A DNA stretch of 64,000 nt from an uncultured Bacilli bacterium (GTDB lineage Bacteria > Bacillota_I > Bacilli_A > RF39 > UBA660): positions 37,460 to 101,459 of the forward strand of contig CALVSO010000001.1 of NCBI GenBank assembly GCA_944359055.1, in the 5' to 3' direction. Under the pieces are notes generated by a model that did not search any database, was not told where the DNA came from, and saw nothing but the letters and a program-made list of their open reading frames with translations. Below are positions 1,828-15,546 of the stretch, piece by piece. The position numbers and the translations under genes are program-made. Position 1 is the first letter of the stretch. Every line of letters starts with the position of its first letter.

Positions 1828-3825
1828 ATGAAAAAGATAATTAATGTTATGTTTGCTATTATTTTTCTTTTTGTTAGTTTAATACCACCTGTTATGGCTT
1901 CGGAAATAAGATATGGCTATGTTAGTTCTACTTTAGGTAATGGTATTTCAGTAAGAAGTGGAGCTGGAACAAGTTATTCTAAATTAAGCGATGGATTGGG
2001 TGAAGGAGAACAAGTTAAAATATTAGCCGAATACAAACCTGATGATGGAACAAATTCTGAGTGTAGTTTATGGTATAAAATAGAATTTTATGAAGTTGAT
2101 TCAGGCGTTGGATATGCATGTGCTGATTTAATTAAATTAATTGAAATTCAAACTGATGAAGACTTTGAAGAAAGTTTAAAAGATTTTCCTGAAAGTTATC
2201 ATGATTCTTTAAGATTATTACATACAATTTATCCTAATGCTATATTTAAAGCATATGATACAAGATTAGATTTTAATACAGTTGTTAAAAATGAAGCAAC
2301 TTTGGGTAAAAGTTTAATTTGGGATTCAAATAATTCAAGAGATGGATTAAAGCACATGGATAGTTATAATTATAAAACAAATAAATTTGCTAATGATTAT
2401 CCAGGCGGTGGCTCTACTTGGTATGCGGCTAGTGAAGAAACACTTGCATATTATATAGATCCTAGAAATTTTCTAAATGAAACTAGAATATTTATGTTTG
2501 AAAGTTTATCATATAGTGCTTCTACTCATACACTTGATGGTGTTTCTGCTATTTTAGCTGGCAGTTTTATGGCTAAAGAAAAAGTTGATGGAGGGAGTAA
2601 ATCTTTTGCCCAAGTTATTTATAGTGCAGGTACATCTTATAAAATAAATCCATATTATTTAGCAAGTCGTATTTTACAAGAAACTGGATATACTAGAAGT
2701 GCTTTAGTAAAAGGAACTTATCCTAGTTATCCACAATTTAATGGTTATTATAATTTCTTTAATTATGGTGCTACAGGAAAAAATGTTGTCTATAATGGTT
2801 TGGAATATGCATATAATAAAGGCTGGAATTCCGAAGAAAAAGCTATTAAAGGTGGTTCTAGCTTAGTTGGTAAAAATTATATTAATGTTGGACAAGATAC
2901 AAATTATTTTCAAAAATGGGATGTTGTTTGTGATAAAACTAATATAAGCAGTTGTAGTTTTTATTCTCATCAATATATGCAAAATATAGAAGCTCCATAT
3001 AGTGAAGCAAATTCTACATATAAAGGATATAAAGAAATATTTGGAGATAAAATGTACGATCAAGTTTTTATATTTACAATACCTGTTTATAAAAATATGC
3101 CTGATAAAACAGTTTTACCTAGTGAAAAAAATCCTATAAATTACTTGAAAACTTTGACCGTTAATGGAAAAAGTGTAGCTAATTTTAATAGTTTAAAAAC
3201 AAATTATTCTATTACTTTACCAGCAAGTACTGGAAGTATAAATGTTGGTGCTAGTGTTATTGAATCAAGATCTTCTGTTAGTGGTACAGGCGATATTAAA
3301 ATTACTAAAGATGGTCAAGTTATACCTGTTACAGTAACAGCTCAAAATGGTGACAAATTAGTATACAATATAACAGTTAAATTAACAGATGCAGAAAATA
3401 TGACTTTAGACGATACAATTAATAATATTAAATCTGGTACTTTTAAAGATGGTTATGTAACAGGTTTAACGAACACTTCAACTATAATAAAAGCAGTAAC
3501 AGATGTAAATGTTTTAGCTGATGTTAAAATAACTGATTTAGATGGTAAAGAAGCAAGCGGATCTGTTGGAACTGGTTATAAAGTAACAATTACTGTTGGT
3601 GACGAAAGTAAAACTTTTGAAGTTGTTATCTATGGTGATACTAATGGTGATGGCGAAATAGATATTTTAGATTTATTAAGAGTTCAAAAACATATTTTAA
3701 AAGCTTCAACTTTAAATGAAACACAAATAAAAGCTAGTGATGTATCTAAAGATGGAACTGTAGATATTTTAGATTTACTTAAAGTTCAAAAACATATTTT
3801 AGGTGCTTCAACGATAAAACAATAA
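1828..3825 (+). CDS. Secreted cell-wall hydrolase: signal peptide, SH3b-like domain, GH73-like glucosaminidase domain, cadherin-like/Ig-like beta-sandwich domains, C-terminal type-I dockerin
   Basis: N-terminal signal peptide (MKKIINVMFAIIFLFVSLIPPVMA). GISVRSGAGTSYSKL...QVKILAEY is SH3b-like. YYLASRILQETGYTRS...NFFNYGATG resembles glucosaminidase (LytD/Atl) motifs. LKTLTVNGKSVANFNSLKTNYSITLP...VTVTAQNGDKLVYNITV is cadherin-like. The C-terminus carries two 22-residue Ca-binding dockerin repeats DTNGDGEIDILDLLRVQKHIL and DVSKDGTVDILDLLKVQKHIL. RBS AAGGTGAGGG. Confidence 0.7.
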   Translation: MKKIINVMFAIIFLFVSLIPPVMASEIRYGYVSSTLGNGISVRSGAGTSYSKLSDGLGEGEQVKILAEYKPDDGTNSECSLWYKIEFYEVDSGVGYACADLIKLIEIQTDEDFEESLKDFPESYHDSLRLLHTIYPNAIFKAYDTRLDFNTVVKNEATLGKSLIWDSNNSRDGLKHMDSYNYKTNKFANDYPGGGSTWYAASEETLAYYIDPRNFLNETRIFMFESLSYSASTHTLDGVSAILAGSFMAKEKVDGGSKSFAQVIYSAGTSYKINPYYLASRILQETGYTRSALVKGTYPSYPQFNGYYNFFNYGATGKNVVYNGLEYAYNKGWNSEEKAIKGGSSLVGKNYINVGQDTNYFQKWDVVCDKTNISSCSFYSHQYMQNIEAPYSEANSTYKGYKEIFGDKMYDQVFIFTIPVYKNMPDKTVLPSEKNPINYLKTLTVNGKSVANFNSLKTNYSITLPASTGSINVGASVIESRSSVSGTGDIKITKDGQVIPVTVTAQNGDKLVYNITVKLTDAENMTLDDTINNIKSGTFKDGYVTGLTNTSTIIKAVTDVNVLADVKITDLDGKEASGSVGTGYKVTITVGDESKTFEVVIYGDTNGDGEIDILDLLRVQKHILKASTLNETQIKASDVSKDGTVDILDLLKVQKHILGASTIKQ

Positions 3826-5311: not shown

Positions 5312-5354
5312 CCATTTAACTTAAGATATAAAATTTGATATATAATTAAAGAAT

Positions 5355-5386
5355 AAAAAAGTTGCTATAAAAAAGCAATTTTTTTT
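5355..5386 (+). terminator. Rho-independent terminator after the cohesin-like gene
   Basis: AAAAAAGTTGC-tataaaaaa-GCAATTTTTTTT hairpin with T-run. Confidence 0.5.
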
Positions 5387-5436
5387 AAAATTTTGCAGGA
5401 AATCACTATACTTTTGGCGAATAAAACTAATAGGAG

Positions 5437-6296
5437 GTGATTTATATAAAAAAATTCTACACTGCAAAACATGAGCCAGTTTTCATGTATGCTGCTGTTA
5501 AAAAAGAATTTCTAATTGCTATTTTAGAACCAATCATAGATAAAAAAATTGAAGAATTAGAAATACTAAATCCTAATTTAGTTCAAGATTATTTTAAATT
5601 AAGAGGCCAAAGATTAGATTTATTAGTAAAAACAAAAAATGAAATAATTAATGTAGAATTAAATACTAATTATAATGAAGAAATAAAAATTAGAAATCTT
5701 CATTATGTATTTAAATTAGCGAGCGAAAATACGGAAAGAGGAAATAAGTATAAAGTAGGCCATTCGATAGTTCAAGTAAATTTAAACTTTTATAATAGTA
5801 AATATGAAAAAAGTATCTATACATTATATGATAAAACAAATAAAATAGAGTTAACAGATTATATAAAATATATAATGTAGGTATAGACAAATACATAAAA
5901 AACTATTATAATAATGATAAGAAGTTTACCAAAGGTGAAGAAGCATTAATCATGTTAGATTTAGATAAAAAAGAATTAGAAGAATTATCGGAAAAGAGTG
6001 ATATAGTGGATAAGTATAAAAAAGAAGTAATAAAAGCAAATAATGATCAATTTGTAGTAGATTGGATAAGTCGTGAAGAAGAGCAAAAACAATATGAAGA
6101 AGTAATGTATGAGAAAGGTATCACTCAAGGTGTCATTCAAGGAAAACAACAAGGAATAAAAGAAGGAATTTCCCAAGGCATTGAAAAAGCAAATATGGAA
6201 AATGCAAAAAAAATGTTAGAATTAAATATGGATTTAGAGACAATAAGCAAAATAACCAATTTAACTATAGAGCAAATTAAAAATTTAAATTTATAA
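5437..6296 (+). pseudogene. Rpn-family (YhgA-like, PD-(D/E)XK) recombination-promoting nuclease/putative transposase, disrupted into two ORFs (5437-5880 and 5952-6296)
   Basis: The first ORF has an N-terminal-like region (HEPVFMYAAVKKEFLIAILEPII) and a nuclease core (LDLLVKTKNEIINVELNTNYNEEIKIRNLHYVFKL). The second ORF carries the characteristic C-terminal (EKGIxQG)n repeat EKGITQGVIQGKQQGIKEGISQGIEKA and a LETISKITNLTIEQIKNL tail. An in-frame stop and a gap separate the two parts. Confidence 0.55.
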
Positions 6297-6317
6297 TTGG
6301 TTATGCTAATAAAATAT

Positions 6318-6362
6318 TAAAAAAGTACTTTTAAAAATTTTATTAAAAAAGTACTTTTTTTA
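6318..6362. terminator. Bidirectional terminator region between convergent genes (two copies of the palindromic AAAAAGTACTTTT hairpin)
   Basis: aaaaagtacttttaaaaattttattaaaaaagtactttttt. Each copy is self-complementary around GTAC and flanked by A and T runs. Confidence 0.5.
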
Positions 6363-6404
6363 AATATTATTCAAATTTCACTTTATATCAGAAATTCTTG
6401 AATT

Positions 6405-7475
6405 TTAGTTTTTTCTTTTTTTAAATAAATTAAGAGAAAATTTACTTTTATCATGTTCAATAATTATATTAGTTTTTAAAACAAATATTAAAACTAATAA
6501 CATTAAAATTCCATATAATAGATATCCTAATTTATTGTCTATTAATACATAAACAATAGAAGCTAGAGCAAATAAAGAATCAATAAAACATATTATTAAT
6601 ACTGTTTTTCTATGGGAAAAATTCATGTTTAGTAGTTGATGATGAATATGAAATTTATCTGGTTTAGTAATACTTTCATTTTTTAAGTATCTTCTTATTA
6701 TAGCAAATATAGTATCTAGAAAAGGAATTGCTAATATCGTAAATGGAATAATAATAGAAGTCATTGTAACGTTTTTAAATCCTAGAAGTGCAATAACACT
6801 TATTATAAAACCTAAAAACATAGAACCAGTATCGCCCATAAATATTGAAGCAGGATTAGCATTATATTTTAAGAATCCTAAACAAGACCCTAACATAATA
6901 AAACATAATATAAAATCTAATCCTTGTGTATGTTTAAAAATAGCAATACTTCCAACTGTTAAGAAAAATATACTACTAATACCTGTTGCTAGTCCATCTA
7001 AACCATCAATTAAATTCATGCAATTTATAAATGCAAGAATAAAAATTATTGTTACTAAATAAGATAAAATTCCAAAATCAATGTATATTCCAAATGCACT
7101 CATACTTGATAATAATATTTTTCCATAAAACACTACAACTAATGTTGCTGCAATTTGACCACATAATTTTACTTTGGCACTTAATGGCTTTATATCATCG
7201 ATTATACCAGTAATTATAATAATAAAACTTCCTATTAAAATTGAATTCATAACATCAGTATGTTTTCCAAATACCATATAACCAAATAAGAATCCGGCAT
7301 AAATAGCTAAGCCACCTAATCGTGGTATTGGAACTTTATGAACCTTTCTTTCATTTGGAATATCCAATGCTCCAACATGATTTGCTATTTTCTTTACAAT
7401 AGGTACCATTAAATATACAAATAGGTAACAGGTTAATGTTACTAATAATACTTGAATAAAAATTTCGTTTGACAT
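6405..7475 (-). CDS. tagO: Undecaprenyl-phosphate N-acetylhexosamine-1-phosphate transferase (TagO/WecA/MraY family), probable initiating transferase
   Basis: About 11 TM segments. Motifs IIDDIKPLSA, NCMNLIDGLDGLATGIS and FMGDTGSMFLGF are typical of MraY/WecA-family polyprenyl-phosphate HexNAc-1-P transferases. Confidence 0.85.
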   Translation of the reverse strand: MSNEIFIQVLLVTLTCYLFVYLMVPIVKKIANHVGALDIPNERKVHKVPIPRLGGLAIYAGFLFGYMVFGKHTDVMNSILIGSFIIIITGIIDDIKPLSAKVKLCGQIAATLVVVFYGKILLSSMSAFGIYIDFGILSYLVTIIFILAFINCMNLIDGLDGLATGISSIFFLTVGSIAIFKHTQGLDFILCFIMLGSCLGFLKYNANPASIFMGDTGSMFLGFIISVIALLGFKNVTMTSIIIPFTILAIPFLDTIFAIIRRYLKNESITKPDKFHIHHQLLNMNFSHRKTVLIICFIDSLFALASIVYVLIDNKLGYLLYGILMLLVLIFVLKTNIIIEHDKSKFSLNLFKKRKN

Positions 7476-7652: not shown

Positions 7653-8615
7653 ATGAAGACATATTTAATTACTGGAGGAGCTGGTTTTATTGGCTCAACT
7701 CTAGCAGATAAATTATTAGAAATGGGTAACAGAGTGGTTGTAATTGATAATTTTTGTGATTTTTACGATCCAAAATATAAAGAAAAGAACATAAAAGAAA
7801 GTTTAAAAAATAAAAATTATTCTTTGTATAGAGTGGATATTAGAAATTATTTAGAATTAGAAAAAGCTTTTAAAGAAAATAATGTTGATTGTATAGTCCA
7901 TTTGGCAGCTATGGCAGGTGTTCGCCCTTCAATAGAAAATCCTATTTTATATCAAGAAGTAAATGGATTAGGCACACAAAATATTTTAGAAATAGCTAAA
8001 AAATATTCAGTAAAAAATTTAGTTATGGCTTCTTCAAGTAGTGTTTATGGTAATTGCGATAAGGTTCCTTTTAAGGAAGATTTTATAGTTGATTATGCTA
8101 TAAGTCCATATGCTGCAACAAAAAAAAGTAATGAAGTTATGGCACATGTTTATCATAAATTATTTAACATGAATATAATCATGCTAAGATTTTTTACAGT
8201 TTATGGTCCAAAACAAAGACCGGATTTAGCTATTAATAAATTTACGAGATTAATGTTAGAAGATAAAGAAATACCAATGTATGGTGATGGTTCTACATCT
8301 AGAGATTATACTTATGTTGATGATATAGTTGATGGAATTATAAAATCAACAGAGTATGTTTTCAATAATGATAATGTTTATGAAATAATTAATATTGGTA
8401 ATTCAACTCCAATTTCATTAAAAGAGATGATTGACATTATTGGTGAGGTTTTAGGAGTAACACCTAAAATTGAACAATTACCTATGCAGCCAGGTGATGT
8501 TGAACGAACTTATGCTGATATAAGTAAAGCAAAAGAACTATTGAATTATGCCCCTAAAACTTCATTTAAAGAAGGAATTAAAAAATTTGTTGAATGGCAT
8601 TTAAAACAAAAATAG
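7653..8615 (+). CDS. NAD-dependent sugar-nucleotide epimerase (UDP-glucuronate 4-epimerase-like, SDR family)
   Basis: TGGAGFIGS Rossmann motif, YAATK catalytic Y-x3-K, and overall GalE/Cap1J-like layout. ATG at 7653 lies 6 nt after GAGGAGAG. The track ORF begins at GTG 7638. Confidence 0.8.
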   Translation: MKTYLITGGAGFIGSTLADKLLEMGNRVVVIDNFCDFYDPKYKEKNIKESLKNKNYSLYRVDIRNYLELEKAFKENNVDCIVHLAAMAGVRPSIENPILYQEVNGLGTQNILEIAKKYSVKNLVMASSSSVYGNCDKVPFKEDFIVDYAISPYAATKKSNEVMAHVYHKLFNMNIIMLRFFTVYGPKQRPDLAINKFTRLMLEDKEIPMYGDGSTSRDYTYVDDIVDGIIKSTEYVFNNDNVYEIINIGNSTPISLKEMIDIIGEVLGVTPKIEQLPMQPGDVERTYADISKAKELLNYAPKTSFKEGIKKFVEWHLKQK

Positions 8616-8627
8616 ACGGAGATTATT

Positions 8628-9620
8628 ATGAAATTAGGAATATTCAAAGAATTTAATAATAAGCATCAAAATTATATTGATGCATGTAACGAATTAAAAG
8701 TTGATTACGAAATTATTGATATATATGCTGACAATTGGATTGAAATTATTAAGAATAGTGATTGTGATGGTTTTTTGGTTCGTCCAAGTTGTGATAAACA
8801 AGATTGGAAGAATATGTATGATGAAAGATTATATTTTATTACAAAATATTTAAACAAAAAAATATATCCATCATATGATGAATGTTATATTTATGAAAGC
8901 AAAAACAGAATGTTTTATTGGCTTGAAGCAAATGGTTTTCCACATGTAGAAACTCATGTTTTTTATGATAAGAATGAAGCATTAAATTTTTTAAACAAAT
9001 GTGAGTATCCATTAGTATACAAGCCAAATTTGGGTAGTTCTTGTGTTGGCATCAAATTTGTTAATAATTATAAAGAAGGGAAAAAACTTGTTAATAAGGC
9101 CTTTCCTTATAAAGGGCTTGGAATGGGTATGATAAAAAAATATAAAACAAGATATAAATTTATAAATCGCCCAGCATTAGATGATAGACAATATAATTAT
9201 ATTATGTTTCAAAAAAAAGAAGATGTAGTTGCAGAGTGGCGAATAATAAAAATAGGAAATTCATTCTTTGGACACCAAAAATTAATTGATAAAAAAGGTT
9301 TTCATAGTGGTGCAGGAATTGGTGCTATTTGGCGAAAACCACCAAAAAAACTATTAGATTTATGCGATAGTATTTGTTCAAAAGGTAATTTTTATTCTAT
9401 GGCTTGTGATATATTTGAAACAAAAGAAAAAAAATATTATGTTAATGAATTACAGACAACCTTTGGATCATATGCTGAATCACAGATGATTATTGACAAT
9501 AAACCAGGAAGATATATTAAAAAGAATAATGATTATATTTTTCAAGAAGGTATTTTTAATAGACATGGAAGCTATTTGTTAAGAGTCGAACATTTTGTTG
9601 AAATTTTGAAAAACAAGTAG
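8628..9620 (+). CDS. ATP-grasp fold protein (RimK-like carboxylate-amine ligase candidate)
   Basis: Central region PLVYKPNLGSSCVGIKFV...AEWRIIKIGNSFFGHQK resembles the ATP-grasp nucleotide-binding core. Assignment rests on weak motif-level similarity only. Confidence 0.45.
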   Translation: MKLGIFKEFNNKHQNYIDACNELKVDYEIIDIYADNWIEIIKNSDCDGFLVRPSCDKQDWKNMYDERLYFITKYLNKKIYPSYDECYIYESKNRMFYWLEANGFPHVETHVFYDKNEALNFLNKCEYPLVYKPNLGSSCVGIKFVNNYKEGKKLVNKAFPYKGLGMGMIKKYKTRYKFINRPALDDRQYNYIMFQKKEDVVAEWRIIKIGNSFFGHQKLIDKKGFHSGAGIGAIWRKPPKKLLDLCDSICSKGNFYSMACDIFETKEKKYYVNELQTTFGSYAESQMIIDNKPGRYIKKNNDYIFQEGIFNRHGSYLLRVEHFVEILKNK

Positions 9621-9640
9621 ATAAATTGTGTTATTGGTAG

Positions 9641-9830
9641 CCTACAAATTGATGATGCAGAGACTGTTATAGCAGATATTTTAAATAATATTTATAAAGA
9701 TTTTGATATAATTGCTTTGCTAATTGAAAAAACTTATGTAGATATAAGTAAAAAAACTATTGAATTATGCCTCTAAAACTTCATTTAAAGAATAAATTAA
9801 AAAATTCGTTGAGAGACTTTAAAAAAAATA
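9641..9830 (+). pseudogene. Fossil chimeric junction: about 100 bp homologous to the 5' end of the GT4 gene at 10846-10950, fused to about 90 bp homologous to the 3' end of the epimerase gene at 8518-8605
   Basis: ttattggtagcctacaaattgatgatgcagagactgttatagcagatattttaaataatatttataaagattttgatataa aligns at about 90% with 10847-10930. cttatgtagatataagtaaaaaaactattgaattatgcctctaaaacttcatttaaagaataaattaaaaaattcgttga aligns at about 85% with 8518-8600. The junction shows microhomology (gaaaaac/ttatg). Confidence 0.7.
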
Positions 9831-9852
9831 ATGAAAGAGGATAGATATTTAA

Positions 9853-10767
9853 ATGTTAACAAAAAAAATAATTAAAATAATAAAAAAACCTAAAAAAATA
9901 ATAATTTTTTTGGCCTCAAAAGGAATTATTCCGTATAATGATGAAAAATATTTAAAATATGTATATAAAGAAAAAACTGGTGATGATTTAAATTTGGATA
10001 ACCCTAAAAACTTTACAGAGAAGCTTCAATGGTTAAAGTTATTTGATAGGAATCCATTATATACAAAATTGGTTGATAAATATGAAGTTAGAGACTATGT
10101 AAAAAAATTAATAGGAGAAAAATATTTAATACCATGTTTAGGAGTTTATGATAATGTTAATGAAATAGATTTTGAACAATTGCCTAATCAATTTGTTTTA
10201 AAAACAACACATGATTCTGGAACTGTTGTTATATGTAAAAATAAAAAAAATTTTGACATATCAAAAGCAAAAAAGTTTTTAAGTAAAAGATTAAAAAGAA
10301 AATATTTTTATTTGTGGAGAGAATGGCCTTATAAAGATGTAAAACCTCGTATAATTGCAGAAAAATATATGGAAGATAAAATATATAAAGGTATTAATGA
10401 TTATAAATTTTATTGTTTTAATGGAGAACCTAAGATTATGTTTATAATATTAGAAAGGAATATAAAGCCTAAGATGTCCTTTTATGATATGAACTTTAAT
10501 AAATTAGATATGCACCAAACATTTCCTGATTATAATAAAAAAATAGAAAAACCTAAAAATTTTGAAAAAATGATTCAGTTCTGTAAAATTTTAGGTAAAA
10601 AATTTTCTCATGTAAGGATTGATTTTTATGAATGTAATGATCAACTTTATTTTGGAGAATTAACTTTTTTTGATAGTGCAGGTTTTGATAAATTTTCACC
10701 AGATGTGTATAATGATATTTTAGGTGAATGGATAGATTTAGAAAGAGTTAATAAATATAATCATTAA
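9853..10767 (+). CDS. TupA-like ATP-grasp protein (teichuronopeptide-type amino acid ligase family)
   Basis: The hallmark N-terminal block NPKNFTEKLQWLKLFDRNPLYTKLVDKYEVRDYV and downstream LPNQFVLKTTHDSGTVVICK...WPYKDVKPRIIAEKYM match the ATPgrasp_TupA family. Confidence 0.75.
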   Translation: MLTKKIIKIIKKPKKIIIFLASKGIIPYNDEKYLKYVYKEKTGDDLNLDNPKNFTEKLQWLKLFDRNPLYTKLVDKYEVRDYVKKLIGEKYLIPCLGVYDNVNEIDFEQLPNQFVLKTTHDSGTVVICKNKKNFDISKAKKFLSKRLKRKYFYLWREWPYKDVKPRIIAEKYMEDKIYKGINDYKFYCFNGEPKIMFIILERNIKPKMSFYDMNFNKLDMHQTFPDYNKKIEKPKNFEKMIQFCKILGKKFSHVRIDFYECNDQLYFGELTFFDSAGFDKFSPDVYNDILGEWIDLERVNKYNH

Positions 10768-10811
10768 ATTTATTAATTTAAGTAATTGAAAATCTCCCTA
10801 AATTAGAAAGA

Positions 10812-11927
10812 TTGGTGTTAATATTGAAAAAAATTTTATTTGTTATTGGTAGCCTACAAATAGGTGGGGCGGAGACTGTTATGGTAGATATTTTAAATAA
10901 TATTTATAAAGATTTTGATATAACAGTTTTATTAATTGAAAAACGTGGAGAGTTGTTAAAAAGTATATCGCCTAATATAAAATTGAAATATTTAACTAAA
11001 GGTGATGAATTTTGTAAATCTTCATTAGAAAAATTTTATAATAAAGTTAAACGAAGTTTAATTTATAGATATTTTGGTAAAAGCAAATTGTATGTAAATT
11101 ATGTATATAAAAAAATTTTAAAAACTAAATATGATACGGAAATTGCTTTTTTAGCTGGGTTACCTTCTAATCTTGTTAAAATGAGTCCAAATAATAGTCA
11201 AAAAATAGTTTGGATACATGCTAGTGTTACTAAAGATGATGTGACAACATATGAAAAATATTCAACTATTTGTAATTCTTTTGATAAGATAATAGGTGTT
11301 AGTGAATCATGTATTAATATTTTTGAAGAAACGTTTCCTGAAAGTAAAGGAAAAATTGAACTAATTCATAATTATGTTGATATAAATAAAATTATAAATA
11401 AATCAAATTTGGAAAACATTTCATTTGATTCAGATAAATTAAACATTTTATCAATTGGAAGAATTGTATCAGAAAAAGGTTTTGATAGAATTATAAATAT
11501 TGCCAAAAAATATGAAAATAAAATAAATTTTTATATTATAGGTGATGGACCATTAAAAGATAAGTTGATGCATAGTTTGGTAGAACAAAAAATTAATAAT
11601 GTTATTTTTTTAGGACTAAAGAAAAATCCTTATCCATATATAAAAAAATGTGATGCTTTTTTACTCAGTTCACGTAGTGAAGCTTATCCGACTGTTGTAA
11701 TTGAGGCAATGGTTTTAAATAAAAGTATTATAGCAACAGATGTTCCAGGGGTTAGTGAAATTTTGAAAGAATATTTAGATAAATTAATTATTCCTAATTT
11801 AGATAATAGTATTGATGAAGGTTTAAATATATGGTTAAGCAGAAAAAATAATAATAAAAATTTAACTAATAATTTTAAAAAAATAAACGATGACAATTTA
11901 AGAAAAGTAAAAAAATTATTTGAGTAG
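10812..11927 (+). CDS. Glycosyltransferase family 4 (GT-B, group 1)
   Basis: N-terminal GSLQIGGAETVMVDIL and C-terminal EAYPTVVIEAMVLNKSIIATDVPGVSEIL (the E-x7-E region). The likely start is the in-frame TTG at 10824 (MKKILFVIG). Confidence 0.85.
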   Translation: MVLILKKILFVIGSLQIGGAETVMVDILNNIYKDFDITVLLIEKRGELLKSISPNIKLKYLTKGDEFCKSSLEKFYNKVKRSLIYRYFGKSKLYVNYVYKKILKTKYDTEIAFLAGLPSNLVKMSPNNSQKIVWIHASVTKDDVTTYEKYSTICNSFDKIIGVSESCINIFEETFPESKGKIELIHNYVDINKIINKSNLENISFDSDKLNILSIGRIVSEKGFDRIINIAKKYENKINFYIIGDGPLKDKLMHSLVEQKINNVIFLGLKKNPYPYIKKCDAFLLSSRSEAYPTVVIEAMVLNKSIIATDVPGVSEILKEYLDKLIIPNLDNSIDEGLNIWLSRKNNNKNLTNNFKKINDDNLRKVKKLFE

Positions 11928-11937
11928 GGTGATTAAC

Positions 11938-14900
11938 ATGAAAACAGATAAATTTACAAAATTATTAATTTTATTTATTATATTACAACCTTTATATGAT
12001 ATTTTTATTTATTTTCTAAATAATGTAATTAATTTTGATTTACCATTCATATCATTTGTTCGTCCATTAATTTCAATTGGAATTTATTTATATTTATTGT
12101 TTAGCTATAAAATTTCAACTAAAGAAAAATTAATTTCATTTATCTATTTATCTATTTATGGAATTTATTGTATCTTACACTTAATAAATATAAGAAATAA
12201 TTTCTTTGAACTATCTTATGGCAATATGTTTAATGAAATAAGATATTTGTGTAATTATGGATATTTTATAATACAATTGATTAATTTTTATTTTATTTTT
12301 AAAATTGTTAATAAAGAAGATAGAAAAAAAATCTTAATTTCTTTCACTCTAGCTATTGGTTTAATGACATTAATGTATTTTATTTCGATTATTACTAACA
12401 CATCGCCATTAACGTATATTTTTTCTAAAGGAAAGGAAGGATGGCGTGGTTGGTCTGTTTCAGCACACTATATAGGTCATTCAATTATTTATGCTTTACC
12501 TGTCATAATTTACACGATTTTTGAAAAAAAATATATAAATAAATGGTATAAATATTTGTTTTTTACTTGCATTTTGATTCCACCTTTTTATTTAGTAGGA
12601 ACAAAAACACCTTTATTTATGACTTTATTTATAGTCCTATTTTATACATTAATGAAAATAATTGTTTCAATAAAAGATAAAAAAATAAGTAAGGATACAA
12701 TATATTTTATAACAATTTCTTTAGTTTTAATATCAACATTCAATTTAACTTACGGATATGCCAATTTTAAAAATCAAATAAGCATTTCTGAAGGTGATGA
12801 AACTGGCGATATCAATTTAATAGAAGATAATATAGATGATTATGAAGATTCAACAATGCAAGAAAATCCTGATTTATCTACTTTTGAAAATAGAATGGTA
12901 TATACATTATATAAATATAGAGATATAAAGAGTTCAGTTTTTGATAATAGAACAATTCAAAAAACATTAAATAAATATTTGTATTCTATAAGCCCTATTA
13001 AGGATAAAATATTTGGTTATGGTCATGATACAATGCCTAATTGTAATTGGGTGGAAACTGATATTTTAACTATATTTTATTGTTATGGATTGGTTGGATT
13101 TTTATTAATAATAGTTTTACCATTAGGTTATATTGCAATCAATGGTTTAAAATGTTTATTTAATATTAAAAAAATGTCAATTTCTAAATTTATTTTAGGT
13201 TTTGGATTTGGTTTATCTTTGGCAATACTTTACTTTGTTGGATATACTATGCAATTTGCTCAAACTGTATTTTATTTAATAATTCTTTTGATTATTGCAA
13301 ATGATTTATTTATTAAAATAACAAATAAAAAAATTAAAAGAGATTATTTATTTATGATAAATGATTTAAGTATAGGTGGAGCAGAAGTTGGCATGGTTGA
13401 TGTTGTTAATGAATTATCAAAAAATGGAAATAAGGTAGATATTGTATTATTACGAAAAAGAGGACCTTTATTAGAAAAATTGGATAAAAACATCAATGTT
13501 TATGAAATTTTAAATTCTGATTATAACAAAATAAAGAAAAAAATTTATCATATATTTTATATGATAGGTGGACCTTTTATAAAATATGTCTACAAAAAAA
13601 CTATAAAAGCTGATTATAATACTGAAGTTGCTTATTTAGAAGGATATCCATCAGTTTTTATTGCATCTAGTAATAATAAAAACTCAACTAAAATAGCGTC
13701 AATAAGAGTAGGCTTAAAAAATCATAAGTTAAAAGCTCATAAGATTCCTTGGGGAGAACAGCTTGTTAAAAATTCTTATAAAAAAATGGATTATATTTAT
13801 ACAGTTTCTGATTTGACTACACAAGAATTTTTAGAAAAATATCCTTTTTGTGAAGGAAAAACAAGTACTATTTATACTTATTTTAATGTTGATGATATTG
13901 TAAAAAAAGCAAAAGAAAAAATAGATTATAAATTTGATCAAAATATGATTAATTTTTTGGCAGTTGGTCGTTTCAATACTCAAAAAGGATATGATAGATT
14001 AATAGAAGCTTTTTCAAAAGTAGTTCAAAAAAATCCAAATGTTTTGTTACATTTTTTAGGAAAGTATGATACTGAAGAAGGAAAAAAAGTTATTGATTTA
14101 ATTGAAAAAAATAATATTAAAGATAAGGTAATACTTCACGGAATAAAATCTAATCCTTATCCATATATGAAACAATGTGACTGTTTGATTAGTTCTTCTT
14201 TATATGAGGGATATCCAAGAGTTATTAATGAAGCTTTATGCTTGAAAAAAATTTGTATAGGAACAAATGTTACTGGTACAAAAGAAGCGTTAAAAAATGG
14301 TAAAATGGGTCTTTTAGTAGATGATTCAATTTCAGGATTGGAAAAAGGAATGCTAGATTTTATAAATGATAAAAATATTTATGATAAATATAAAGAAGAA
14401 ATCGAAAAATTTGATGGTAACAAAGAAAGTTATTTTAAAGGTTTAGAAAAAATCAGCAACAAAAAGAAGAAAATGATTATATATATGCCAAAGTTATCTT
14501 TTGGAGGCATGGAAAAAGCTTTAGTTAATTTAATTAATTATGCTAAGTTAAATGAAAAATATGATTTAACGTTATATTTAGTATATAAGGGTGATATGAA
14601 TTATTTAGAATTATTACCTAAAAATATTAAAATAATTATTGCATGTCCAAATAAATGGAATTTATTTGGAAAAGTAACAGCATTTATAAAATTAATTTTT
14701 AGATATATTTATCAAATATTTGTTAAATATGATATTGCTATTTCATATTCTTATCAGCATCCAATTCTAACTTCTTTAACTAGATTAAGTAGTGAAAATA
14801 GTATAGTTTACATTCATTCAAATTTAATTGATGGAATGAATAAAAAATTACTGCAAAAAAGAATAAAAAAATGTAAATATGAAAAATTTAAAAAAATTAT

Positions 14901-15546
14901 TTGTGTTTCAGAAGATGCAAAGAAAGCATTAGTAGGATTAATTCATAGAAAAGATAATATTTATGTATTAAATAATGTAATAGATGGAGATAAAATATTA
15001 TTACAATCTAATGAAAAAATAGATGATTTTAAATTTGAAAATAATACTATATATTTTATTAATATATGTCGTCATATTGAAGAATCTAAAAAACTTATAA
15101 GAATAATTGAGGCTACTAATAAATTGAACAAAGAAGGATATAAATTTGAAGTTCTTTTTGTAGGTGATGGGGAAGATCATCAGTTGTATATTGATAAAAT
15201 AAAAGAATTAAACATTAACAATATTCATTTGTTAGGAAAAAAGAAAAATCCTTATAAATATTTAAATAAATCGTCAGCCCTCTTATTATCTTCAATAAGA
15301 GAAGGATATCCTGTTGTGTTTGTTGAGTCTCTTGTACTTAATATTCCAATTGTAACAACTAATGTTTCTGATGCAAAAAAAGATATTAAAAATAAATATG
15401 GAATAGTAGTTTCAAATAATGATGAAGCAATTTATGATGGTATGAAAAAATTTATTAATGAAGGATTTAAAATTAAATATAATTTTGATTATATTCAGTA
15501 TAATCAAAAAATTTATTATGAGACTATAAAAATATATGAGGAGTGA
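11938..15546 (+). CDS. Tri-domain fusion: Wzy/O-antigen-polymerase-like polytopic membrane domain (about aa 1-460), then GT4 glycosyltransferase, then a second GT4 glycosyltransferase
   Basis: The N-terminal third has 10 or more TM helices and a large hydrophilic loop (ISEGDETGDINLIEDNIDDYEDSTMQENPD...NCNWVETDILTIFYCYGLVGFLLI) typical of Wzy/EpsG polymerases. GT4 domain 1: DLSIGGAEVGMVDVVNEL...EGYPRVINEALCLKKICIGTNVTGTKEAL. GT4 domain 2: MIIYMPKLSFGGMEKALVNL...EGYPVVFVESLVLNIPIVTTNVSDAKKDI. The 1196-codon ORF (1202 from TTG 11920) is continuous. ATG at 11938 follows RBS AGGGTGA. Confidence 0.7.
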   Translation: MKTDKFTKLLILFIILQPLYDIFIYFLNNVINFDLPFISFVRPLISIGIYLYLLFSYKISTKEKLISFIYLSIYGIYCILHLINIRNNFFELSYGNMFNEIRYLCNYGYFIIQLINFYFIFKIVNKEDRKKILISFTLAIGLMTLMYFISIITNTSPLTYIFSKGKEGWRGWSVSAHYIGHSIIYALPVIIYTIFEKKYINKWYKYLFFTCILIPPFYLVGTKTPLFMTLFIVLFYTLMKIIVSIKDKKISKDTIYFITISLVLISTFNLTYGYANFKNQISISEGDETGDINLIEDNIDDYEDSTMQENPDLSTFENRMVYTLYKYRDIKSSVFDNRTIQKTLNKYLYSISPIKDKIFGYGHDTMPNCNWVETDILTIFYCYGLVGFLLIIVLPLGYIAINGLKCLFNIKKMSISKFILGFGFGLSLAILYFVGYTMQFAQTVFYLIILLIIANDLFIKITNKKIKRDYLFMINDLSIGGAEVGMVDVVNELSKNGNKVDIVLLRKRGPLLEKLDKNINVYEILNSDYNKIKKKIYHIFYMIGGPFIKYVYKKTIKADYNTEVAYLEGYPSVFIASSNNKNSTKIASIRVGLKNHKLKAHKIPWGEQLVKNSYKKMDYIYTVSDLTTQEFLEKYPFCEGKTSTIYTYFNVDDIVKKAKEKIDYKFDQNMINFLAVGRFNTQKGYDRLIEAFSKVVQKNPNVLLHFLGKYDTEEGKKVIDLIEKNNIKDKVILHGIKSNPYPYMKQCDCLISSSLYEGYPRVINEALCLKKICIGTNVTGTKEALKNGKMGLLVDDSISGLEKGMLDFINDKNIYDKYKEEIEKFDGNKESYFKGLEKISNKKKKMIIYMPKLSFGGMEKALVNLINYAKLNEKYDLTLYLVYKGDMNYLELLPKNIKIIIACPNKWNLFGKVTAFIKLIFRYIYQIFVKYDIAISYSYQHPILTSLTRLSSENSIVYIHSNLIDGMNKKLLQKRIKKCKYEKFKKIICVSEDAKKALVGLIHRKDNIYVLNNVIDGDKILLQSNEKIDDFKFENNTIYFINICRHIEESKKLIRIIEATNKLNKEGYKFEVLFVGDGEDHQLYIDKIKELNINNIHLLGKKKNPYKYLNKSSALLLSSIREGYPVVFVESLVLNIPIVTTNVSDAKKDIKNKYGIVVSNNDEAIYDGMKKFINEGFKIKYNFDYIQYNQKIYYETIKIYEE

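Follow-up and report, generated by a model that had tools for sequence, protein, structure and literature searches.

What occupies the 232 bases that separate two consecutive ATP-grasp ligase genes in a surface-polysaccharide locus of an uncultured gut bacterium, and how did these bases come to lie there? The locus is contained in a stretch of 64,000 nucleotides that was analysed as a whole (hereafter the window; G+C content 24.2%), and the bases in question, 9621-9852, fill the entire intergenic gap between AG330, which encodes a 330-aa ATP-grasp ligase (8628..9620, + strand), and a gene for a 304-aa TupA-like ATP-grasp protein (9853..10767, + strand; PF14305, E 1.7e-69). With a probability of about 0.8, this segment is a non-functional composite pseudogene remnant, the seam of two alternative forms of the locus that were joined head to tail. 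The homologies of its parts, both parental layouts, longer intermediate scars and a repeat-mediated deletion are directly seen in the sequences compared here.

The neighbouring genes are biosynthetic. A WecA/MraY-type transferase gene (6405-7475, - strand; Pfam and NCBIfam) is followed by an intact NAD-dependent sugar epimerase gene on the + strand (7653..8615; PF01370/PF16363), which encodes 320 aa from the ATG at 7653 and is called at the same length in loci L001-L010. AG330, which gives weak PF02786 and RimK/LysX-like NCBIfam matches, is the cassette gene of what we call the type 1 layout, and its homologues lie directly upstream of GT4 in L013 and L041-44. TupA has the corresponding role in the type 2 layout, which is found in L045, L020 and L026. 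Beyond TupA, also on the + strand, lie an intact gene for a GT4-family glycosyltransferase (10824..11927; 367 aa, PF00534/PF13692) and one for a 1208-aa fusion of an O-antigen-ligase-like domain with two GT domains (11920-15546; Pfam), and then deacetylase, Alg14, Alg13, GT2 and flippase genes. The fusion protein consists of a PF13425 membrane domain and two GT1/GT4 domains and is 64-70% identical across related MAGs. A protein 99% identical to the intact GT4 is named by NCBI as coming from Candidatus Faecisoma merdavium, which NCBI places in Mycoplasmatota incertae sedis, and the related loci derive from 'uncultured Bacilli/Bacillota' gut MAGs.

When 9561-9900 was compared with the whole window by BLASTN, two strong matches stood out: 9629-9731 corresponds to the 5' end of the GT4 gene at 10841-10943 (88.35% identity over 103 ungapped nt, E 2e-33), and 9724-9828 to the 3' end of the epimerase gene at 8500-8610 (82.9% over 111 columns with 2 gaps, E 6e-27). 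The two overlap by 8 nt (9724-9731), and no other match within the window rivals them, the rest being AT-rich noise at E ~1e-4 or worse. A window-versus-window BLAST yielded 4 non-trivial self-matches at E<1e-8, among which the GT4 and epimerase pairs rank strongest, and an independent repeat finder recovered both pairs as well (families D1-D3). Taken as repeats, the GT4 pair spans 103 nt at 88% identity, with a longest exact run of 38 nt, and the epimerase pair ~105 nt at 83%, where the longest exact run is 20 nt. Both halves thus align far above background with the intact genes, as the original prediction had held, and its coordinates and identities (~90% and ~85%) were essentially right, if slightly off. 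It had also read the segment as a recombination scar and called for a search of the window and of related genomes. The BLASTN pairs bear out that reading, as the GT4 5' end precedes the epimerase 3' end, in reverse of the current gene order and with the join-point signature of a tandem duplication, and the search matched both halves and found single-cassette parental layouts in relatives. Elsewhere in the window we noted a weak 58-nt direct repeat (3659-3716 and 3761-3818, 86%) inside a dockerin-domain protein gene, and a 68-nt match at 79% between the GT4 gene (11582-11649) and the C-terminal GT domain of the fusion (15204-15271), probably a paralogous motif.

Read along the + strand, the scar is composed of five parts. 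At 9621..9628 stands ATAAATTG, the vestige of the ribosome-binding and start region of a lost GT4 copy, from which 10 nt and 13 nt are gone relative to L017 and L046. In L017, a sister strain, the sequence after the AG330 stop reads TAA-TTCGGAGTTGATAAA-TTGAAAAAATTTTGTTTGTTATTGG, that is, the ribosome-binding site and start of a GT4 gene, in which the window lacks the 10 nt and the 13 nt; L017 is readable only to the start of this GT4 remnant, as its contig ends at the repeat. The GT4 remnant itself (GT4', 9629..9732) covers approximately codons 7-40 of the glycosyltransferase gene and was polarised against 7 outgroups. Its last bases form the junction, 9724..9732, which is the single kept copy of a 9-nt direct repeat, TTGAAAAAA. 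The epimerase remnant (epi', 9733..9831) corresponds to the last ~100 nt of the epimerase gene, including a vestigial TAA stop at 9829-9831; the counterpart of the right half of the scar in the intact gene is its last ~115 nt (8500-8614). The final 21 nt (9832..9852) are the native epimerase-TupA spacer with an RBS-like AAAGAGGA, and match the corresponding spacer of L045 at 20/21 positions.

The genes that surround the scar are arranged differently in relatives. The framework of the clade is (WecA-like)-epimerase-variable slot-GT4-ligase/GT fusion-deacetylase-Alg14-Alg13 and onward, and it is the slot between epimerase and GT4 that changes. The type 1 arrangement, epimerase-AG330-GT4, occurs with abutting genes and no scar in L041-44 (AG330 83% identical at the amino acid level), and in L013 AG330 and GT4 lie 11 nt apart and follow a UDP-glucose-dehydrogenase-like gene (AG330 80% identical in amino acids). 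The type 2 arrangement, epimerase-TupA-GT4, is found in L020, L026 and L045; variants are epimerase-ATPgrasp_ST-TupA-GT4 (L021, L025), epimerase-TupA-extra gene-GT4 (L027, L030) and epimerase-TupA-ligase fusion, in which GT4 is absent between the latter two (L018, L019). AG330 and TupA share no detectable homology (BLASTP E 0.42; different Pfam families), so the structure in the window is not a plain tandem duplication, which we ruled out on this ground.

The most informative relative is L045 (contig DVJX01000035.1 of GCA_018716405.1, a Candidatus Faecisoma merdavium MAG), in which the order is WecA-epimerase-TupA-GT4 with a 21-nt epimerase-TupA spacer and with neither AG330 nor scar. Its positions 8893-11144 align contiguously with 9724-11967 of the window at 97.8% identity, and the alignment starts exactly at the junction; the right half of the scar, the spacer and TupA therefore form a single native block, in which the epimerase gene was later truncated. 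L019 is likewise contiguous with the window across epi' and TupA. That L045 is instead a deletion derivative of a window-type locus, produced by recombination between the epimerase 3' copies, is unlikely: the 3' end of its epimerase gene is complete and like that of the intact copy as far as the stop, and epimerase-TupA adjacency is widespread in other species. No genome with two complete inner copies (a full first GT4 and a full second epimerase) was found, and the species complex yielded no intact copy 1 of GT4 either, the next homologue after the 99% cluster being 65% identical. Two scans of JGI metagenome contigs with AG330, one with the single sequence and then one with an alignment, returned no relatives. 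A scan of genome contigs with an alignment of the ligase fusion reached 69% at best and did not recover the window's own species; it did provide outgroup layouts.

Longer versions of the scar were reached through more divergent TupA alleles (~91-92% amino acid and ~90-92% nucleotide identity to TupA of the window). In L046 (ERZ17292902), AG330 is followed by GT4' from -25 to +275, only the last ~80 nt of epi', and TupA. In L047-49 (three SRR331931xx samples), GT4' extends from +5 to +410 with internal deletions and is followed by epi' from -364 to -327 and from -175 to the end, and then by TupA. L047 contains TTGAAAAAA twice, at position 109 within GT4' and at position 424 within epi', 315 nt apart, and the lone copy of the window at 9724-9732 has the left flank of the first L047 copy and the right flank of the second. 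This repeat pair with its matching flanks indicates that the joint of the window is secondary, a deletion of ~315 nt between perfect 9-nt direct repeats in an older and longer scar. A second short-repeat deletion, between GGTGA repeats, lies inside the epi' remnant of L047. The window retains epi' sequence that is missing from L046, and L046 retains GT4' sequence that is missing from the window, so neither scar can be derived from the other and erosion was independent in both lineages. Even the oldest joint recovered, between GT4 +410 and epimerase -364 in L047, may be secondary.

A comparison of GT4' sites with both intact copies revealed 3 states common to all three scars, 1 shared by the window and L047 and 2 shared by L046 and L047, against private changes numbering 11 in the window, 15 in L046 and 4 in L047. 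Within epi', the window and L047 share 3 states as well as a change from GCT to GTA. These few shared sites, set against many private changes, provide modest to moderate evidence that the scars had a single origin. In L047-L049, which come from three samples of one study, TupA (L047 560-1473) is split into ORFs of 85 aa and 219 aa by a poly-A loss from A7 to A6, which could represent a pseudogene or homopolymer phase variation.

The scar has lost its coding capacity. Although it had been described as a pseudo-ORF, 9621-9852 contains no ORF of at least 40 aa. The frame derived from GT4 abuts the TAG stop of AG330 without a start codon of its own, the GT4 start region having been removed from the window by the 13-nt deletion, and it meets a stop after a 5-nt deletion in the part derived from the epimerase gene. 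The Gly-Gly motif of GT4' has decayed from GGTGGG to GATGAT (GG to DD), and epi' bears the 5-nt deletion, a 1-nt deletion, a GGA to TAA change and a TGG to AGA change (W to R). When polarised with 6 or 7 outgroups, most differences between the scar and the intact genes prove to be derived on the scar branch, where conserved residues are altered or the frame is shifted. Remnant lengths and joints differ among the window, L046 and L047, as expected under relaxed constraint and lineage-specific erosion. These comparisons offer clear evidence that the scar is decaying, and we infer that it has no function beyond that of a spacer. Nevertheless, the final ~78 nt of epi' and the 21-nt spacer beside TupA survive in all three versions, a possible sign of constraint, for instance from a TupA leader or promoter.

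As to mobile elements at the scar, we found only short AT-rich inverted matches, none of which brackets it, and the nearest transposase-like fragments (Rpn family, 5437-6296) are 3.3 kb away. These fragments belong to a segment of 1.1 kb (5319-6403) whose ORFs 5437-5880 and 5952-6296 resemble the Rpn family of recombination-promoting nucleases/putative transposases (TIGR01784, with scores under the curated cut-off). One fragment corresponds to profile positions 16-141 and the other to 202-272, as if a single gene had been split or had decayed. L045 and L017 lack the segment, and their cadherin-like gene directly adjoins the WecA-like gene.

Several other accounts of the scar have to be weighed, the most trivial being an assembly chimera in which reads of two strains were mis-joined at a shared repeat. 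K-mer assemblies do break here: Logan contigs end at window positions 9703, 9682 or 10915, a k-mer assembly effect since these ends fall inside the 38-nt exact repeat (9674-9711 = 10886-10923). Yet the exact AG330 protein is present on 22 contigs, and five independent assemblies (ERZ28614505, ERZ28614994, ERZ24773330, ERZ24773224 and ERR4096310), which differ in assembler and sample, span the junction at 99-100% identity and with identical structure. Together with the related but different scars of other lineages, this renders a chimera next to impossible, and the junction is not an assembly artefact. As to the potential hotspot for rearrangement that the original prediction had proposed, none of the contigs inspected displayed ongoing rearrangement at the scar repeats or recombination between them, k-mer assembly breaks being all that was seen there. 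It is also very improbable that the segment is a functional element that merely resembles gene fragments, be it a small ORF, an RNA leader or attenuator, or the TupA promoter. Such an element could account for the retention of the epi' end and spacer in 3/3 scar versions and for the 99-100% conservation of the scar among the closest strains, but this strain-level conservation does not exceed that of the flanking genes. Apart from the missing ORF, a comparison of 9400-10000 with Rfam returned nothing at E<=1, and sites resembling promoters or terminators stay within shuffled expectation, with none on the + strand within 9630-9852. Lineage-specific deletions and frameshifts speak for relaxed constraint rather than for a function, and in L045 TupA would be expressed from behind an intact epimerase gene in a scar-free arrangement.

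Two further accounts accept the scar as a recombination product and differ in how it was formed. An in-situ tandem duplication reaching from the epimerase 3' end to the GT4 5' end in one genome, after which one slot gene was replaced by an unrelated gene, would explain why the end of a segment is joined to its start, and the copies may have been nearly identical at the event, as divergence lies mostly on the scar branch. It founders on the enclosed genes, AG330 and TupA, which are not detectably homologous, and on the extra gene-replacement step that it requires, with flanks of only ~100-400 nt on one side; single-cassette layouts occur naturally in relatives and explain the structure without any duplication. 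We give it little credence, if a shade more than the functional element. The other account, which was initially favoured, holds that 9724-9732 is the primary joint, formed in one step by homology-facilitated illegitimate recombination (HFIR) or unequal crossover at the microhomology TTGAAAAA between an epimerase-AG330-GT4 and an epimerase-TupA-GT4 locus, and that the L046 and L047 scars arose independently. The topology is what one homologous and one illegitimate exchange should produce, with the GT4 5' end joined to the start of the epimerase 3' part; both parental layouts exist; and HFIR joints typically have microhomology of a few to ~10 nt (PMC3240628; PMC5361080). We downgraded this single-step joint to improbable on account of the longer L047 and L046 scars and the repeat pair: L047 has both repeat copies and the intervening 315 nt, with flanks that match the window on each side, the scars share states missing from the intact copies, and three independent events leading to the same AG330-GT4'-epi'-TupA order in close relatives are less parsimonious than one event followed by erosion.

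The sequence around the locus is mosaic. To the left of ~8040, the window and L045 are 70-93% identical (the end of rpoC, the dockerin protein gene, the cadherin-like protein gene, WecA and the 5' half of the epimerase gene), whereas identity is 98-100% across 8040-8614 and 96-100% across TupA-GT4. Within the epimerase gene, at ~7890-8190, identity to both L045 and L007 steps from 81-88% to 98-100%, as would be left by a homologous-recombination breakpoint and an exchange of the locus between diverged backbones. L007 has the backbone of L045 (99%), yet its AG330 and scar are 100% identical to those of the window. It follows that the form with AG330 and the scar and the scar-free form with TupA only are alternative alleles, exchanged among backbones through homologous recombination that has a breakpoint in the epimerase gene. 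These mosaic identity profiles provide indirect evidence that homologous recombination may be frequent in the lineage. The scar is 12-17% diverged from the intact copies although TupA-GT4 is 96-100% identical to L045, a discrepancy that can arise if the event is old and the flanks were later homogenised by recombination while the allele-specific scar was not; alternatively, the parents could in part have diverged already before the merger. In the 3' part of the 1208-aa fusion gene (14800-15400), identity to L002 drops to 81-93% from 99-100% elsewhere, and this patch looks like another small recombination tract.

We favour the following history, in which the segment is the remnant of a seam between two locus forms. 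Recombination would have placed an epimerase-AG330-GT4 (copy 1) block, in which copy 1 refers to GT4, upstream of an epimerase (copy 2)-TupA-GT4 block. The nature of this first merging event has to be deduced from its product, the only part of it that is visible: the merger probably took one homologous exchange and a second join that was out of register or illegitimate. The candidates, all of equivalent topology here, are homology-facilitated illegitimate recombination, unequal crossover and the Campbell-type insertion of a fragment that had been circularised. The inner copies of GT4 and epimerase would then have been redundant and would have decayed by point mutations and successive short-repeat deletions. 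The last visible step in the lineage of the window was the loss of ~315 nt between the two TTGAAAAAA repeats, resulting in the GT4'::epi' joint at 9724-9732, and the remainder would serve as an intergenic spacer only, still giving TupA its original upstream 21 nt with the ribosome-binding site. The original prediction had placed microhomology (gaaaaac/ttatg) at the join, which was approximately right, the true repeat being TTGAAAAAA at 9724-9732; it had also proposed an ancestral duplication with second copies of both genes, followed by deletion between them. Of this proposal, the two-copy state with subsequent deletion agrees with the longer remnants in L046 and L047-49 and with the repeat pair of L047, but the duplication in situ does not, given the unrelated slot genes and the two single-cassette layouts in relatives. 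We consider it doubtful that the unrelated ligases AG330 and TupA, stacked in one glycan pathway, constitute a long-lived polymorphism yielding a new surface structure, in which the last ~80 nt of the dead epimerase gene and the spacer would have been co-opted as a leader or promoter to maintain expression of TupA-GT4 downstream of the inserted cassette.

How does this scar compare with known systems? In Salmonella O-antigen clusters, wzy remnants in groups B1 and D1 have undergone serial lineage-specific deletions, and group D2 arose by recombination of the D1 and E clusters (PMC3715488). Like the remnants at Salmonella O-antigen and capsule junctions, the scar consists of truncated, decaying fragments of locus genes at the boundary between blocks of different ancestry, it has been eroded by serial deletions that differ among lineages, and the shared flanking genes have mosaic identity gradients from homologous recombination. 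Unlike them, it has no IS or H-repeat element at its joint, it is a chimera of two genes (GT4 5' and epimerase 3'), the event stacked two cassettes instead of replacing one, and its host is no enterobacterium but belongs to an uncultured gut lineage that has a low GC content (24%) and is a relative of Candidatus Faecisoma. Gene remnants at polysaccharide-locus junctions are well documented (PMC3715488), and the description of the scar as rare is accordingly not borne out.

HFIR and arrays of orphan or displaced genes have been described for the T6SS effector-immunity arrays of Vibrio cholerae and for orphan Rhs 3' ends (PMC3240628, PMC5361080). There, as here, a conserved anchor gene admits a new module, the old pieces are displaced rather than removed and leave 3' or 5' fragments as a record, and the joints lie at short microhomologies. 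The difference is that the joint in the window is a later deletion and the primary illegitimate joint was not recovered. With a homologous anchor and a joint at 3-12 nt of microhomology taken as marks of HFIR, the topology is compatible, but the microhomology joint of the window is secondary.

Deletion between short direct repeats, by replication slippage or a microhomology-mediated route, is a textbook pattern of pseudogene erosion. The perfect 9-nt repeats 315 nt apart in L047 and the one copy with collinear flanks in the window conform to it, with nothing unusual about them. The scar is thus a well-resolved case of an already known kind of remnant in an uncultured low-GC gut lineage and not a new kind, and its value is illustrative rather than conceptual because the mechanism is textbook. 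There is also a practical side: short-read assemblies fragment at the 38-nt repeat of the scar, and gene-content calls from MAGs are easily mis-scored at this place. With two parental layouts, the merged layout and three stages of erosion, the seam provides a stepwise example of how surface-polysaccharide loci diversify, in which the stacking of cassettes can add an enzyme instead of swapping one, and the redundant pieces are then trimmed by short-repeat deletions.
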